A stretch of DNA of 64,000 bases from Candidatus Aminicenantia bacterium (lineage in GTDB: Bacteria > Acidobacteriota > Aminicenantia > Aminicenantales > Saccharicenantaceae), in the NCBI GenBank assembly GCA_041479905.1, contig JBGOYY010000009.1, positions 653 to 64,652 on the forward strand, written 5' to 3'. The number at the start of each line of letters is the position of its first letter. Position 1 is the stretch's first letter. Positions 19,113 to 32,186 of this stretch are shown here, piece by piece. The position numbers and the translations under genes were made by a program. The notes under the pieces were generated by a model that saw only the letters and a list, made by a program, of their open reading frames with translations, ran no database searches and had not been told where the DNA came from.

Positions 19113-19346
19113 CTGGGTTTTATCCTTCGTCCATCGCCTTTGATTTCAATTGCTTACCTCCATCTTTCAACATAGAGCTTTCGGGTTTATGCGGACTGTA
19201 TAAACCGGGTCAAAGCCTATCGACCAGGCTCCGCACACCGTGCACTTTGCGATGTCTTTCATTTCGATCTCCATTTCGCCTCTCTAGTAGTTCACATGCC
19301 ACACAGAGGTGAATACGCTGCTCCGATTTATCCATATGATCTCTCT

Positions 19347-26491: not shown

Positions 26492-26521
26492 AGTTTCTTC
26501 CTGCGTCTATTTCTATTTGCC

Positions 26522-26611
26522 ATCTAACGCTTCGGCTAACCTGCCGCGCCAACGAGTTTCCCGCATAGCGCCACCGCGCTTCTCGCGGTCAGGTTGAGCC
26601 GGTTGTTATAC
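26522..26611 (-). other. attC-like recombination site B (3' end of the membrane-protein cassette)
   Basis: The minus strand reads GTATAAC...AAGCGTTAGAT. The plus-strand fold has 16 bp (26533-26548 with 26584-26601) and exactly two bulged bases, T26589 and G26596, on the 3' arm, which is the classical T/G extrahelical pattern of attC bottom strands. Confidence 0.75.
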
Positions 26612-26627
26612 CTTTTTTCCTTTTATT

Positions 26628-27497
26628 TCATGATTTTGCACTCTTGAAATCTCGAACTGCTTCATCAACTTCTTTTTTATCCTTAAACCGTAAGGTATTG
26701 ATATGTTTAGACCATTTATTCAACACCCATAGATTTGTGCCGAAAGCAAGTATTGTTTTCTTTTTCACATATTTCAATAACGCTACATCCCTGACAAAGA
26801 ATCGAAGCCTGACAAATAGAGATTCGTAACCTGCATATAGCGCCGCAAAATACACGAATGGCAGGAACATGATTGAAAACAAGATAGGTAGATAATAGTT
26901 TTCTAAATTTTTAAAGGTAGCAAAGTGCTTAAAATCGGTAACCACCATATAGATGGCATAGCTTGTAAAGGCTAAACCAATAAAAGCCATGATGTAGTTT
27001 AAAAGTTTTTTTGCTATTTCGTATTTTTTATCTGTCCCGGCAATGGCTATCATTCCTCCTAAAATGACAAAAACTGGCACGAGGAATAGCTCAACCCATA
27101 AATCAAATACGTACAAGTTGATAAGGAATTCGAGAACGATCAAACCTTTGATGTTGTCTTTGATGGCGTCTTTAAAGAAGTTCTGATTACTTGCCTTTGA
27201 AAATTCAAATAGCATGACAAATGCAACGTACAAAACCCATAGGATAGTGATTTGTAAATGGGGCAATTTCCAAATACCAACTGCATTCAGAGGAATTATC
27301 ATAAGAGTAATGTACGAGAACATTATCACGTATGAAATTGCAAGTTTCCATGCGAAAAATGCTTTTAATACTTGAAATAATGATTTCCTGAGTTTGGGTT
27401 GGGAAAGCGCCCAGATGACGGCTATGAGTATCCATATTGCAATAGCAAGTTCTCGATTGCTGAATTTCTGGAACAAATTAATTGCCGTATTTATCAT
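26628..27497 (-). CDS. Polytopic membrane protein, no recognised family (AT-rich single-gene cassette)
   Basis: 289 aa with about 7 hydrophobic helices (IAIWILIAVIWAL, ISYVIMFSYITLMIIPL, ITILWVLYVAFVMLF and others) and a basic C-terminal tail. Confidence 0.6.
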   Translation of the reverse strand: MINTAINLFQKFSNRELAIAIWILIAVIWALSQPKLRKSLFQVLKAFFAWKLAISYVIMFSYITLMIIPLNAVGIWKLPHLQITILWVLYVAFVMLFEFSKASNQNFFKDAIKDNIKGLIVLEFLINLYVFDLWVELFLVPVFVILGGMIAIAGTDKKYEIAKKLLNYIMAFIGLAFTSYAIYMVVTDFKHFATFKNLENYYLPILFSIMFLPFVYFAALYAGYESLFVRLRFFVRDVALLKYVKKKTILAFGTNLWVLNKWSKHINTLRFKDKKEVDEAVRDFKSAKS

Positions 27498-27515
27498 TTT
27501 GGTAATTTTGTAATA

Positions 27516-27586
27516 GTATGACGTCTGCGGTGACCGGCGCGAAACCCGCCGCGGGTTTCGCGTACGTGTCGCCCGCCTTGTTCGCT
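27516..27586 (-). other. attC-like recombination site C (3' end of the 355-aa cassette)
   Basis: The minus strand reads AGCGAAC (5 nt after the stop)...GTCATAC. The plus-strand fold has an outer stem (27527-27536 with 27565-27576) with bulges T27567 and C27574, plus an inner 10-bp stem (27538-27547 with 27553-27562). Confidence 0.5.
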
Positions 27587-27591
27587 GTTCA

Positions 27592-28659
27592 TCATGTCTG
27601 CGGGTCTCTTTGTCCCGAAATAATGGCGATCAAATTCACAACTGCCGTAGTAGCCTCGGCACACATCGCAGCCGCTCGGAAGTCCGCCGTCCGCCTGTGC
27701 GTGACTTCGTTGGCGAAGTCCAATGATGATTTTGAATGTCGGCGTGCGGTTTCATTTGTTTGGCCGGGTAGCTTTGCCGCGAGATAGGCGTCGATCATTC
27801 TCTTCGCGTCAGTTGAGCTTGGGATGACACCATCCTCGGTGGGATACGCACCTGCATTGTAGACCGTCTGGGCTAGTGATATTAGAGTTTCTCGGCAGAG
27901 CAATCCAACGGCTTGAAACTGCTCCTCAGTTTTCGCTTGCGCGAGGCGCGTTCTTATCTCGCCAAGGGTTCGGTCAACACGAGTCCATCCAGTGGGTCCA
28001 GTGAAGATTATCTGTGTTGGCGTTATTTCGCCTTGCTTGAGCGCTTTCGCCACCGGACCGAACAGCCCGTTGATGTAGTTCCTTCGTGACTGGTAGGAGG
28101 GAAGGTCTCCGCTGCTCCATTTGCCGTACCATTCCCAGAGATCGGAGTACGGGTTGGGGTCTTCAATTTCTCTCTCTGCTAGCCCGGTGTGAATCAACTC
28201 GCGCCGCTCCTTGTAGTCGTGGTTAACAGTCTCGATGCGGGGGCCGCCAGTGGAGACGGATATCATTAGATTTCTCTGTGCATCGAGTGCTGTGAGCACA
28301 TCCGTGTTGGAGATCTGATGCGGTTGGATTGGCGTCTGTGTCGTAGTAATCAGTAGGGGCGAAACAACGACCTCTCCAATCCAAGTGTTCGGATATTTCC
28401 GCAGGATGGGTCGAAGCTTTTCCTTGATTGTCTCTTCAACGGTCTTCAGGTTTGCTTCGTAGGTTGCATAGATGTCTGTGGGCACTTCGAGGTATAGTCC
28501 ATAGATGTCGGTGCCACCATTCCAGTTGTCATAGCCGACTTGCTCAATTCGCGCTTGTGCAGCCCGCAGGATCTCGCTTTCTGGATAGCTGCCGTCGTGG
28601 TTGAACAGCTCTCGCAGTGTTCTGATCAGGGCGTCACAGTCTTGTGAAATATCGGCCAT
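27592..28659 (-). CDS. Hypothetical protein, orphan single-gene cassette
   Basis: Long ORF of intermediate GC. ATG 28659 is preferred over GTG 28686 because the latter would overlap attC site D. I recognise no catalytic motif. Confidence 0.6.
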   Translation of the reverse strand: MADISQDCDALIRTLRELFNHDGSYPESEILRAAQARIEQVGYDNWNGGTDIYGLYLEVPTDIYATYEANLKTVEETIKEKLRPILRKYPNTWIGEVVVSPLLITTTQTPIQPHQISNTDVLTALDAQRNLMISVSTGGPRIETVNHDYKERRELIHTGLAEREIEDPNPYSDLWEWYGKWSSGDLPSYQSRRNYINGLFGPVAKALKQGEITPTQIIFTGPTGWTRVDRTLGEIRTRLAQAKTEEQFQAVGLLCRETLISLAQTVYNAGAYPTEDGVIPSSTDAKRMIDAYLAAKLPGQTNETARRHSKSSLDFANEVTHRRTADFRAAAMCAEATTAVVNLIAIISGQRDPQT

Positions 28660-28668
28660 ATTCTTTTC

Positions 28669-28724
28669 AGCGAACGCAGAGCTCACCCGCCACTTTAAAG
28701 GTCGGGTGTAGCGACTGGTTAGCC
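28669..28724 (-). other. attC-like recombination site D (3' end of the dcm/GHKL/vsr cassette)
   Basis: The minus strand reads GGCTAAC (containing the vsr TAA stop)...GTTCGCT. The plus-strand fold has 11 bp (28681-28691 with 28700-28712) and two bulged T (28702, 28709) on the 3' arm. Confidence 0.65.
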
Positions 28725-29183
28725 GTATTTATTACCTTCGCCAGTATTTGTAGCTTCTTTTTTTCGTAACAAAACACGGGCGATTTCTTTAACACAAGTC
28801 GACGTATCTTTTTTTATTTCGAAATCCCAAAAACGAAAAACTTTCCACCCATCTTGCTTCAAGCGTATCGTGATTGCTTTATCTCTTCGTATGTTATCTT
28901 CAATTTTCTTGAGCCAAAAACCTTTTCTTACTTTTATTTTATTCTTTTCCTCCGACCAATTGAAACCATGCCAAAAAGAGGAGTCGCAAAACACTGCGAT
29001 CTTCCGACGTTTCCAACAAAAATCAGGCGTGCCGAGTACGCCCTTTAGATTCTTGCGATACCCGCGCAAACTTGAGGTCCAAAGCGCACTGCCCAGGATC
29101 TTTTCTATTCCCGTCCCTTTCGCTTTCACACAGGACATTTTGTATGAAACAATTTCCTTTTTACTTCGCTTTAAAAGAGTCAT
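28719..29183 (-). CDS. vsr: Very-short-patch repair endonuclease
   Basis: GTPDFCW...KIAVFCDSSFWHG core typical of Vsr. About 154 aa. Confidence 0.85.
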   Translation of the reverse strand: MTLLKRSKKEIVSYKMSCVKAKGTGIEKILGSALWTSSLRGYRKNLKGVLGTPDFCWKRRKIAVFCDSSFWHGFNWSEEKNKIKVRKGFWLKKIEDNIRRDKAITIRLKQDGWKVFRFWDFEIKKDTSTCVKEIARVLLRKKEATNTGEGNKYG

Positions 29184-29186
29184 TAC

Positions 29187-30863
29187 TTATTTATCTTTAT
29201 TAGACAACAGAGCTTTTATCCTCTCCTTTATATTGGAATAAACAGTAGTTAATTTACTTTTTGCCTCATCGGTTAGAAGGGCTGTATGTGCAAGGGCATC
29301 TCTAAGTGGTTTATACTCCTTTGCATCCCTCGAAAGACAAGCTTCCATCTGAGTATCTTTCTTGTCCACCATATTTGCAAGTGCATCCATTGCTAAATAA
29401 CTTAATATAGTATTTGTTTTTCTAATTTCTATGGATATGTTTCCTTTCTTTTTACTGTCCGTTTCTTTATTTCTCCATTTATCATATTCTTCTTTTGCTT
29501 CTTTAGAGAGGGGAACCTTCTTTTCTTGAATATATTTTCTGATTAGGTTTTCGGATATAAAACATTCCGCATAAGACGCAAAATTATATTTCGCATCAGC
29601 GCCCAAATCAATAACCCACCCATCAATAGTTTTACTATTCATTGAATCTTTAGGAAGAATATATTCTTCGGAAACTGCGTTATATAGTTCCTCAGCCTTT
29701 CTCTCTTTTTTGGTGATACTTGTATCCTCTGAATCACCATCATTTCTATGCTTTCTTCTCCAAGCATCCCAATCGTTAAGAATTTTACCTATAATTTTAT
29801 CTCTTAATGAATCTAGAAGCTCCTTGTATTTGGGGTCATCTGCAACGATGCTTTCACGACTACTAGTGAATCTGTCCACCACATCGTCCAAATCGTTAAA
29901 ATGAACCTGCCCGTATAAGTAACTTTCGACCACCCTAGCGGTGGGAATGTGTTTTAAAATGTCTCTTTCTCTTAATCTACCATTGACAAAAAGATCAACG
30001 CCGATCCTTTCGTCAATAGTAATTATTTTGAGATTCCTCGGCTTTTCGACAGAGGCAATAAATCCCTTAATATTTCCTTTTACATTAAGTTGTTTTTCTT
30101 CATTTTTGTCTGGAGTAAATTTCTCTTGAAGCTTCTGAATATAGGGATCGGGAAGATCGTTTATTTTCCATAGAAACTGCGTTTTTGAGGCAAGATCATC
30201 CAAACAATCCTGAGTAACCTTCTCATCGTCAATAAATATATCAAAGGCCTGATCCAATAAAGAGAATCGAAAATACAGAGCAATGATCTTTTTTAAGAAA
30301 CCTAAGCTATGTTTTATCCCGTCTTTGATATTTTCAAAATAAATAATAGTGCCTTGGTCATGATCTTTTATATGCTGGCTAAAAGTATCTATCCTCCATT
30401 CTCCTAATGGATATTCCTTTGGCGTCAAGTCGTCGGTTATGGCTCGATCCAAATCTGAATTATCAATAACCCCGCCAATATAATTCCCGCCGTGTGTTTT
30501 TGATATAATAGTAATTTTCTCTGCGCACGATAATAATGCTAATTTCCCGATTCCCTTTCTGCCGATGTATGGCCTATTTTTTTGGGGAGAAGCTTTTCCC
30601 TCTTTTCTTTTTGTATATCCGATCTTCAAAAACTTATTTTGGAAATCACCCGCAGTCATACCCACGCCATCATCTTTTATGAAAAAGTTGTTCTTTGCTT
30701 TATCGATATAAATGCTTACATTCTCAGCATCTGCATCCCATGCATTAGAAATCGCCTCCCCAAGAACAGTTGCGAAGCTTCTGTATAAATTTCTTCCCAA
30801 GTGATTTAGGACACTCAAAGAAATTTCAAACGAAAAATTATGACTTTCTGATTGGCTATTCAT
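29187..30863 (-). CDS. GHKL (HATPase_c, MutL/MORC-like) ATPase with long C-terminal extension and a possible HEPN-type Rx4H motif
   Basis: Bergerat-fold boxes EAISNAWDA (N box), IKDDGVGM (G1) and GRKGIGKLA (G2). LRDALAH lies 33 residues from the C-terminus. ATG 30863 overlaps the dcm stop by 8 nt. Confidence 0.75.
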   Translation of the reverse strand: MNSQSESHNFSFEISLSVLNHLGRNLYRSFATVLGEAISNAWDADAENVSIYIDKAKNNFFIKDDGVGMTAGDFQNKFLKIGYTKRKEGKASPQKNRPYIGRKGIGKLALLSCAEKITIISKTHGGNYIGGVIDNSDLDRAITDDLTPKEYPLGEWRIDTFSQHIKDHDQGTIIYFENIKDGIKHSLGFLKKIIALYFRFSLLDQAFDIFIDDEKVTQDCLDDLASKTQFLWKINDLPDPYIQKLQEKFTPDKNEEKQLNVKGNIKGFIASVEKPRNLKIITIDERIGVDLFVNGRLRERDILKHIPTARVVESYLYGQVHFNDLDDVVDRFTSSRESIVADDPKYKELLDSLRDKIIGKILNDWDAWRRKHRNDGDSEDTSITKKERKAEELYNAVSEEYILPKDSMNSKTIDGWVIDLGADAKYNFASYAECFISENLIRKYIQEKKVPLSKEAKEEYDKWRNKETDSKKKGNISIEIRKTNTILSYLAMDALANMVDKKDTQMEACLSRDAKEYKPLRDALAHTALLTDEAKSKLTTVYSNIKERIKALLSNKDK

Positions 30864-31929
30864 AATACTTATCAATATGCTTAATAATACTTTTTCCGAT
30901 TATTTCGCCTAATCGGACAGGTACAGCATTCCCTATGTATCTTCCTAATCTTTTAAGTCCCACAGGAGCAGTTGAAGGAATAAACTTATATTTTCTTGGA
31001 AAGGTTTGTAAAATTGCACCCTCTCGTATCGAAATGGCTCTATCTTGCTCAGGGTGACCAAATCGCCCTGTTCCAAAACTAAAAAACTGTGTGGTTATAG
31101 TAGGTGCCGGCTTATTCCATTCCATCCTTGCATAAACGGCACTATAAGTGTCGCCGGACTCTTTCCGATGACAATCCGCTCTTAATTTCTCATCCCAATC
31201 CCGCCATGAACTACCTGGCGCCGATTTTTTAATTCTTTCAAGATTGACTCCCGATAGAGCAGCCGATTTATGCAATCTATCCTTCCTTGATGATGTCCCG
31301 GCTTTAATTGACTCTAAATTACCGATAGCCATTTTGACTGTTTTGTAATTTTCTGGCTTATGTGTCGGAGCGATTAATTTTGTTTCTCCTAACTTTGAAG
31401 CAAATAGTACTAACCTTCTTCGATTTTGTGGAATTCCGTAATCTGGACAATATACAATTTGCCAACTGACATTATATTTTAACAACTTAAGACCTTCAAC
31501 AAAATCGGAGAAAACTTTATGTTTAGTTATCTGAGGAACATTTTCCATTGAAACTACTATGGGTTCCACTTTCTTAATCAATTTGAAAAAATGATAAAGC
31601 AATCCCCAATCTTCTTTAGTCTCTCTATCTTTTTCCTTTTGAGTATGCTTTGAGAATGGTTGGCATGGTGCACAACCTACCAAAACTTTCGAACTTTGGG
31701 TAGGATATAAATTTAGGATTTCTTTTGGTGTGATTTCTTTGATGCTCTTGTGAATAAACAATGCGCCATTGTTCTCTTCAAATGCAAATTTACATTTTTC
31801 ATCGACATCAACTCCGGCTACGACTTTAATACCGGACTTGTTCAAACCATAAGTCAATCCCCCAACTCCACAAAAGAGGTCTACCGCAACAATAGACAAT
31901 TTACTGTTTATATGAGATTTTGTATTCAT
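30856..31929 (-). CDS. dcm: DNA (cytosine-5)-methyltransferase
   Basis: Motif I DLFCGVGG, motif IV GCAPCQPFS, motif VI ENV, motif VIII QNRRRLV. Confidence 0.92.
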   Translation of the reverse strand: MNTKSHINSKLSIVAVDLFCGVGGLTYGLNKSGIKVVAGVDVDEKCKFAFEENNGALFIHKSIKEITPKEILNLYPTQSSKVLVGCAPCQPFSKHTQKEKDRETKEDWGLLYHFFKLIKKVEPIVVSMENVPQITKHKVFSDFVEGLKLLKYNVSWQIVYCPDYGIPQNRRRLVLFASKLGETKLIAPTHKPENYKTVKMAIGNLESIKAGTSSRKDRLHKSAALSGVNLERIKKSAPGSSWRDWDEKLRADCHRKESGDTYSAVYARMEWNKPAPTITTQFFSFGTGRFGHPEQDRAISIREGAILQTFPRKYKFIPSTAPVGLKRLGRYIGNAVPVRLGEIIGKSIIKHIDKYYE

Positions 31930-31999
31930 CTTTCTTCCGAAAAATCATCCATCATAAACACTCTTTACGTATCCGTTAGGTTATTTTTAGTTGTCATAC

Positions 32000-32062
32000 G
32001 GCTAACAATGATTATACAGTCTGTATAATTCTGGAAATACAGATCATTTCAACTGGTTATCT
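32000..32062 (-). other. attC-like recombination site E (proximal end of the array)
   Basis: The minus strand reads AGATAAC...GTTAGCC. AATGAT/ATCATT and TATACAG/CTGTATA stems lie between the cores. GTTAGCC is the exact complement of the inverse core of site D. Confidence 0.5.
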
Positions 32063-32186
32063 CCCTCTTTCAACACAGAGCTTGAGGAATTTTAGGGGTT
32101 TCGGGTAACAACGTGATCCGGTCTTTGGCCCCCTCGCCGTCGCGGATGATAATTCGGAGAAAATCAACTGAACCCCTTCAAGAGGG

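Follow-up and report, generated by a model that had tools for sequence, protein, structure and literature searches.

In a 64,000-nucleotide (nt) stretch of the genome of a Candidatus Aminicenantia bacterium (assembly GCA_041479905.1, contig JBGOYY010000009.1; hereafter the window, to whose positions all coordinates refer), we identified an integron-type gene cassette that carries three genes: dcm, encoding a C5 cytosine DNA methyltransferase; a gene encoding a 558-residue GHKL (paraMORC-type) ATPase; and vsr, encoding a very-short-patch T:G mismatch endonuclease. With modest confidence, we read this trio as a module for restriction or abortive infection that is guarded by methylation, driven by ATP and equipped with a HEPN-like effector. 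The N-terminal two-thirds of the GHKL protein are homologous to a family of restriction enzymes, its partner methylase belongs to the same clade as the methylases of those enzymes, and its C-terminus carries a helical domain with an invariant Rx4H motif where those enzymes carry a DNase.

The genes are three intact, co-directional open reading frames (ORFs) on the minus strand: dcm (30856–31929; 357 residues; PF00145, 1.2e-60, and TIGR00675), the GHKL gene (29187–30863, translated from the ATG at 30863; PF13589 HATPase_c_3, 5.4e-21), and vsr (28719–29183; 154 residues; PF03852 and TIGR00632, whose cut-off of 97.85 bits is passed with a score of 108.5 bits). Vsr enzymes repair the T:G mismatches that arise from deamination of 5-methylcytosine. 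As described in an initial annotation that was made from the sequence alone, dcm and the ATPase gene overlap by 8 nt, the ATPase gene and vsr are separated by 3 nt, and the block is AT-rich (36–37% GC vs about 60–65% in the flanks). The genes evolve under purifying selection, with dN/dS of 0.18–0.20 for the GHKL gene, 0.18–0.19 for vsr and 0.15–0.20 across all three; on the basis of these values and the intact ORFs, we rejected the idea that the trio is a decaying passenger.

The GHKL protein: N-terminal module, partner methylase and C-terminal domain

The initial annotation had proposed that the ATPase replaces the restriction endonuclease expected beside a methylase. However, residues 10–380 of the GHKL protein (29724–30836, minus strand), that is, the Bergerat ATPase and the middle domain, match NF050001, the profile for the ‘BbrUII/HgiDII family restriction enzyme’ (5e-90, 302.9 bits). 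The match covers profile positions 1–372 of 659 only and misses the curated equivalog cut-off, which is set at 550 bits for the whole protein; true members of the family (L103 and L104; P and L labels designate the protein and locus copies that we compared) score 775–779 bits and are ∼30% identical to the GHKL protein over ∼400 residues. Two PADLOC REase_II models (PDLC03485 and PDLC03419) also match the N-terminal part only (∼1e-38). Because the first 380 residues are the BbrUII/HgiDII module and the methylase that accompanies them comes from the clade of the BbrUII/HgiDII methylases (see below), the GHKL protein is, judged by homology, a relative of the BbrUII/HgiDII enzymes and not a stand-in for an absent restriction enzyme. 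Its likeness to a named restriction component with the same partners therefore extends to the N-terminal module and the methylase clade; the C-terminal end differs, and the 303 bits remain below the 550 required of a family member. The BbrUII/HgiDII family probably corresponds to paraMORC3 of Iyer et al. 2008, who defined paraMORC1–5 and described dcm and Vsr as their neighbors (PMC2292703).

The window protein contains the Bergerat boxes recognized in the initial annotation (EAISNAWDA, DDGVGM and GRKGIGKLA), and neither these nor the ATP-binding residues E36, N40, D43, D64–G68, G101–G106 and G171–T172 vary among 18 homologs. When a full-length AlphaFold2 model (built with 18 close homologs) was searched with Foldseek, the neighbors of the GHKL part were Hsp90, MutL and MORC2. 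Identity as an Hsp90/HtpG chaperone or a canonical MutL was considered and rejected, the NCBIfam matches to those families reaching just 17–30 bits. The GHKL protein has more than 4800 homologs; the best 120 share 66–93% identity with it, nearly all along the entire length.

The relatives that we examined in genomes of the same phylum differ in how they end. L103, L104 and four looser relatives terminate in PD-(D/E)xK motifs, and the C-termini of L103–L109 contain D...E[LI]K motifs; L110 (546 residues) has the same N-terminal module, an adjacent dcm homolog and a Ymh-type HEPN end with the motif RNPISH; the window protein has neither, terminating instead in an unrelated all-alpha domain. Thus, one N-terminal module of ∼375 residues bears at least three alternative C-termini. 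R.HgiDII was described as a GHKL domain followed by a C-terminal domain of no known fold, alongside four more subfamilies of GHKL restriction enzymes, one of which, R.NmeAIP, terminates in Hypoth_Ymh (Orlowski & Bujnicki 2008, PMC2441816); Hypoth_Ymh (PF09509) was subsequently classed as a HEPN family that is fused to paraMORC ATPases in restriction-modification neighborhoods (Anantharaman et al., PMC3710099). The PD-(D/E)xK signatures of the BbrUII/HgiDII-family C-termini read RVDIKYRT...VVELKR and RPDFTLV..VEIKAVG (L103:1489–3429 and L104:1498–3447; also L105, L106, L108 and L109).

The methylases tell of the same kinship. Those encoded beside L103 and L104 are 46–51% identical to the window methylase, and their target recognition domains (TRDs) are 50–54% identical to its TRD, inside the range of 39–62% that the partner methylases of the window protein's own family span. 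In a maximum-likelihood tree, the L103 and L104 methylases nest inside the clade formed by the methylases of the window family. The methylases of other GHKL subfamilies share just 27–36% TRD identity, and that of L110 (29%) falls in a different clade. M.HgiDII methylates GTCGAC (PMC5867850); because the methylases encoded beside genuine BbrUII/HgiDII enzymes fall within the clade of the window methylase, we predict GTCGAC as its target. The published accounts of M.BbrUII conflict: it is given as an N6-adenine methylase (PMC5829577) and as a characterized 5-methylcytosine methylase homologous to M.HgiDII (PMC5867850).

The window protein's C-terminal domain (residues 381–558; 29190–29723, minus strand) is specific to this architecture. 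A phmmer search of residues 375–558 against 1.84 billion representative proteins returned 197 matches, and every full-length match is a protein of 550–590 residues with the domain at its C-terminus; we take the shorter matches to be fragments. An AlphaFold2 model of the isolated domain (78 homologs) is all-alpha and confident (pLDDT 90.5, pTM 0.81). In an alignment of 149 diverse C-terminal domains, five polar residues are strictly invariant (149/149): R521 and H526, which delimit the Rx4H motif RDALAH (29286–29303), and E438, N439 and R442 of a second cluster, ENLIR (29538–29552), that may contribute to an active site. The consensus of the first motif is R-[ND]-A-x-x-H-T, and divergent members have R-N-A-x-x-H-T. 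Foldseek against the PDB returned 42 weak neighbors, among which are five distinct HEPN proteins: 2q00, HepT (7bxo, 6m6u), Csm6' (8pe3), HI0074 (1jog) and AbiV (9bj7). All of these except AbiV top the list, with probabilities of 0.16–0.28, the highest query TM-scores and a target TM-score (TMt) of up to 0.49; by a rough, uncomputed estimate, the HEPN share is far above that expected from the number of HEPN chains in the PDB. On another contig, the same genome contains a 1127-residue open frame with an N-terminal HEPN domain of the Swt1 type (L090, G000:C6:17818–18162, minus strand; PF18731, 140.8 bits).

Linkage with the methylase, Vsr and DISARM

We surveyed the genome neighborhoods of 80 loci that encode full-length GHKL homologs (54–77% identity); these span many bacterial phyla as well as the Woesearchaeota, Thaumarchaeota, Thermoplasmata and Iainarchaeota. 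An orthologous dcm (42–66% identity) adjoins the GHKL gene in 78 of the 80, mostly immediately upstream, and a tblastn match to Vsr was found in half (40/80). Across these loci the ATPase is better conserved than either its methylase or its Vsr. The closest relatives of the window protein, P0001 (93% identity) and P0003 (88%), retain the full trio with identical overlaps. The association with dcm and vsr that the initial annotation had proposed to check among homologs is therefore conserved, and it is stronger for dcm.

In the two loci that lack an adjoining dcm (L005 and L008), the GHKL gene directly follows drmA-drmB-drmC. One of these can be viewed in full: on the contig of L008, from a Planctomycetota metagenome-assembled genome, a co-directional operon of ∼19 kb (L149; 834–19499) encodes, in order, a dcm ortholog (45% identity), DrmD, DrmMI, two unassigned ORFs of 473 and 331 residues, DrmA, DrmB, DrmC and the GHKL protein; the closing gene encodes a GHKL-Rx4H protein that is 66% identical to that of the window. 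Thus, in L149 the methylase and GHKL genes enclose a full class 1 DISARM system. The occurrence of the GHKL gene as the last gene of a DISARM operon in two loci ties the family to phage defense.

Proposed mechanism and alternative explanations

In the mechanism that we favor, the C5 methylase, as a member of the M.HgiDII/M.BbrUII clade, would mark host DNA, presumably at GTCGAC, and Vsr would mend the mismatches that result from deamination of the mark, limiting C-to-T mutation. The GHKL protein would be the ‘restriction’ arm, in which the HEPN-like helical domain has taken the place of the PD-(D/E)xK DNase. It may dimerize into a clamp that is driven by ATP and detects target DNA lacking methylation; the dimeric C-terminal domain would then act as the effector, most probably as a metal-independent nuclease whose substrate is RNA. 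The cell would be expected to enter growth arrest or abortive infection, and loss of the methylase would bring about post-segregational killing, which would also stabilize the cassette. A more specific version goes further, that is, the restriction arm does not cut DNA at all: the clamp would read GTCGAC-type methylation, unmethylated DNA would activate a HEPN-like RNase and thereby abortive infection, and the same sensor would recur with ends of the DNase, RNase or TIR kind and as a supplement to DISARM. We regard this version as plausible and hold it more tentatively than the general reading.

Several observations weigh against a methylation-guarded module with a HEPN-like effector. The Foldseek search against the PDB produced no significant match (best E-value 1.5, probability at most 0.28), and the same program found no match for the C-terminal domain in BFVD. 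No Pfam HEPN model matches the C-terminal pieces of the window protein at E-values up to 10; when 78 homologous C-terminal domains were searched, Pfam returned noise and a single sequence (1/78) that touches HEPN_Swt1 with E = 0.013. In hhalign comparisons with Swt1 and Ymh HEPN alignments, including enlarged ones, the Rx4H motifs line up, but the scores (P = 0.03–0.6; 0.13–0.6 for Ymh) are no better than that of a reversed-sequence control (P = 0.15). Turning to the rest of the protein, the full-length AlphaFold2 model is poor (pLDDT 49.6) and informative for the GHKL part alone; residues 250–441, where a putative S5-fold transducer domain would follow the GHKL domain, fall below 50.

The hhalign result is uninformative and not negative because the positive control, Swt1 against Ymh, fails too (P = 0.22); profile comparison therefore cannot settle HEPN membership. 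A profile search of the C-terminal domain against PDB sequences gave noise only (DEPTOR, NF-YC), the domain has no match to PF09509 (E-values up to 10) or TIGR02391 (E-values up to 0.1), and Pfam has no model for this C-terminal family. The initial annotation had suggested a HEPN tail from the Rx4H arrangement and had proposed structure prediction as a check. The motif proves invariant, the predicted structure is a confident all-alpha domain, and the top weak structural neighbors are HEPN proteins, yet no structural or profile match is significant and membership is unproven. Weighing the model and its neighbors, we consider a HEPN-like fold likely; the invariant polar residues suggest, in addition, that the domain may have nuclease chemistry.

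The GHKL protein could instead be a true DNA-cleaving Type II enzyme, that is, an iso- or neoschizomer of HgiDII, BbrUII or SalI in which the helical domain is a new DNase and/or a DNA-recognition module and ATP hydrolysis only modulates cleavage. The helical domain sits where HgiDII and BbrUII carry their PD-(D/E)xK DNase, the partner methylase is of their clade, PADLOC and NCBIfam both assign the N-terminal part to restriction enzymes, and a 2008 study pointed to possible new nuclease folds in the C-terminal domains of GHKL restriction enzymes (PMC2441816); however, the HEPN domains that have been characterized are RNases (PMC3710099). The invariant residues show no evident acidic cluster of the metal-binding kind that typifies DNases, and sequence conservation, at 54–93% across phyla, is far from usual among Type II restriction enzymes in being so high. 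We also know of no all-alpha domain of the Rx4H type that cleaves DNA, and this counts against an isoschizomer; we judge a DNA-cleaving enzyme unlikely.

The helical domain might also be non-catalytic, so that the protein is a sensor, clamp or regulator only and a partner does the killing or cutting (Vsr or, in the DISARM copies, DrmC and the helicases). Such a division of labor would suit L005 and L008/L149, where drmA-drmB-drmC, the source of a PLD nuclease and helicases, precede the GHKL gene; paraMORCs have been proposed to be DNA-looping engines that act with separate nucleases (PMC2292703), and dimerization is a common role of C-terminal domains in GHKL proteins (bioRxiv 10.64898/2026.09.30.754977). 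It is harder to reconcile with the 38 of 78 dcm-linked loci in which no Vsr match was found (other nucleases were not searched for there) and with five invariant polar residues that, including as they do a catalytic-type Rx4H, suggest chemistry over packing; we think it improbable. The position of the GHKL gene between dcm and vsr recalls yet another role, that of a MutL-like accessory of very-short-patch repair in a unit that methylates and repairs with neither restriction nor toxicity; E. coli MutL does interact with Vsr physically and functionally (reference 18 in PMC2292703). We give this very little credence: the link to dcm (78/80) is far stronger than that to Vsr (40/80), the N-terminal module is common to bona fide restriction enzymes, the protein is present in DISARM operons, and an invariant Rx4H domain would be superfluous for a repair helper. 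Our preference remains with the methylation-guarded restriction or abortive-infection module.

Cassette context, significance and comparison with known systems

The cassette that carries the trio occupies 28675–32005 (minus strand; 3331 nt, 37% GC), beginning with TTAGCC and ending with CTGCG. Its boundaries were defined by comparison with L089, a groundwater metagenome contig that is 94.7% identical at the DNA level over window positions 32007–28673 and has unrelated flanks; the homology runs from G|TTAGCC to CTGCG|TT, that is, it breaks at GTT cores on both sides. At the 5' end is the recombination core GTTAGCC (G|TTAGCC, site E; 32000–32006, minus strand), where the L089 homology starts. 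At the 3' end is a 56-nt attC (site D; 28669–28724, minus strand) with R'' GGCTAAC and R' GTTCGCT that folds into an imperfect, bulged hairpin (z = −2.84). R'' (28718–28724) overlaps the vsr stop codon and is the exact complement of the G plus TTAGCC with which the cassette starts. Because R'' and the core are complementary in the circular form and the L089 breakpoints fall at GTT cores, the trio forms a bona fide cassette of the integron type. The attC-like bounds proposed in the initial annotation hold in full for site D; site E has the core but not the hairpin, since the 130 nt upstream fold no better than shuffled sequences (z = −0.99) and contain no attC-like hairpin. A strict regular-expression scan of the window (RYYYAAC...GTTRRRY) found no site; the cores GGCTAAC and GTTCGCT depart from this consensus. 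The 94%-complete assembly contains no integron integrase (TIGR02249; best score 76.5 bits against a cut-off of 265 bits, on another contig), so the array is a CALIN (attC sites clustered in the absence of an integrase). The same trio is found, with 86% DNA identity, in an ordinary chromosomal context (L086).

The C-terminus of the window Vsr is 15 codons longer than that of L089 (154 vs 139 residues; 28719–28766), and the additional codons extend into R'' of the attC. Two more attC-like hairpins are found on the minus strand at 27498–27600 and 26520–26625 (z = −3.3 and −3.1). The first of these begins with AGCGAAC, the exact complement of GTTCGCT at the start of the adjacent cassette, which holds the 364-residue ORF, so the cassette logic also holds for the next unit. 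The ORFs of the adjacent cassettes (27592–28686, 364 residues; 26628–27497, a 289-residue multi-pass membrane protein; both minus strand) have no match in Pfam, NCBIfam, PADLOC or PHROGs. The cassettes are contained in a low-GC block of ∼12.9 kb; just outside its ends is a 38-nt direct repeat (87% identical; 19143–19180 and 32046–32083) accompanied by a 17-nt near-palindrome (19187–19203 and 32012–32028). Upstream of its copy of the cassette, L089 (L089:1–353) has a 25-nt palindrome, GTAAGGCGAACTTAAGTTCGCTTAC, together with a promoter-like sequence of the TTGACA type. This stretch of L089 may be an attI/Pc-like region; the contig breaks off before any integrase.

A GHKL protein with a Ymh-type HEPN domain beside dcm and vsr had already been described in silico (PMC2441816, PMC3710099), and the concept of such a module was forecast for this Ymh sister form in 2008 and 2013 (PMC3710099, PMC2441816, PMC2292703). 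The trio has, as the annotation supposed, no experimental characterization that our literature search turned up, and we found no experimentally tested member of the design in the literature. What the window adds are the exact boundaries of the cassette, the methylase clade that is common to the PD-(D/E)xK form, the variant that brackets DISARM, and the controls by which profile comparison proved unable to decide on HEPN membership. If the C-terminal domain is an RNase, what looks like a Type II restriction-modification pair would be a very widespread methylation-gated abortive-infection system; thousands of bacterial and archaeal homologs, at present named merely ‘ATP-binding protein’, belong to the family, and an RNase result would alter the annotation of such pairs. 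It would also provide a tractable two-gene model of DNA-methylation sensing by MORC-like GHKL ATPases, with a bearing on eukaryotic MORCs. One sensor module with at least three effectors, together with one methylase clade, is a natural comparative experiment. Finally, the cassette form indicates that such modules travel by integron-type recombination, and they may stabilize cassette arrays through addiction.

The window system can be placed among known ones by what it shares with each and where it departs. As a mobile unit, it resembles integron cassettes and CALINs in its G|TT core bounds, its R''/R' complementarity and the near-identical copy in another context; it differs in that the 94%-complete assembly has no IntI, the unit is large (three genes, 3.3 kb) and the 5' end has no attC-like hairpin. 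With DISARM, which combines DrmA, DrmB and DrmC with either DrmD and DrmMI or DrmE and DrmMII, it shares a methylase whose best PADLOC match is the DrmMII model (DrmMII/MTase_II, 5e-98), although drmA, drmB and drmC are absent from the cassette and the DISARM context occurs in just 2 of the 80 loci. The closest relatives are the BbrUII/HgiDII enzymes, with which it shares a homologous GHKL and middle module (∼372 positions, 303 bits, ∼30% identity) and a C5 methylase of the same clade whose gene is translationally coupled upstream; the window protein is ∼100 residues shorter and has the 178-residue all-alpha Rx4H domain instead of PD-(D/E)xK. NmeAI-type proteins (R.NmeAIP, GHKL plus Hypoth_Ymh; L110 is such a protein) likewise combine the GHKL and middle module with a small helical Rx4H domain; however, the window protein's C-terminal domain has no PF09509 or TIGR02391 match, and the methylases are of different clades.

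Functional analogies reach further. The PrrC and RloC anticodon nucleases, which are linked to restriction-modification and for which such an analogy has been proposed (PMC3710099), also fuse an ATPase to a HEPN-type effector in a restriction-modification context and embody the idea of a methylation-guarded suicidal RNase; their ATPases are of the ABC/Rad50 type and stand beside a full Type I or Type III system, whereas the window has a GHKL ATPase and no separate restriction enzyme. Tiamat and other GHL ATPases of defense systems share with the window system a GHKL clamp, an exchangeable C-terminal effector and methyltransferase neighbors; Tiamat, however, is reported to belong to a different GHL clade, together with Hsp90 and sacsin, and it has a PD-(D/E)xK effector and neighboring methylases that are mostly adenine-specific (bioRxiv 10.64898/2026.09.30.754977).

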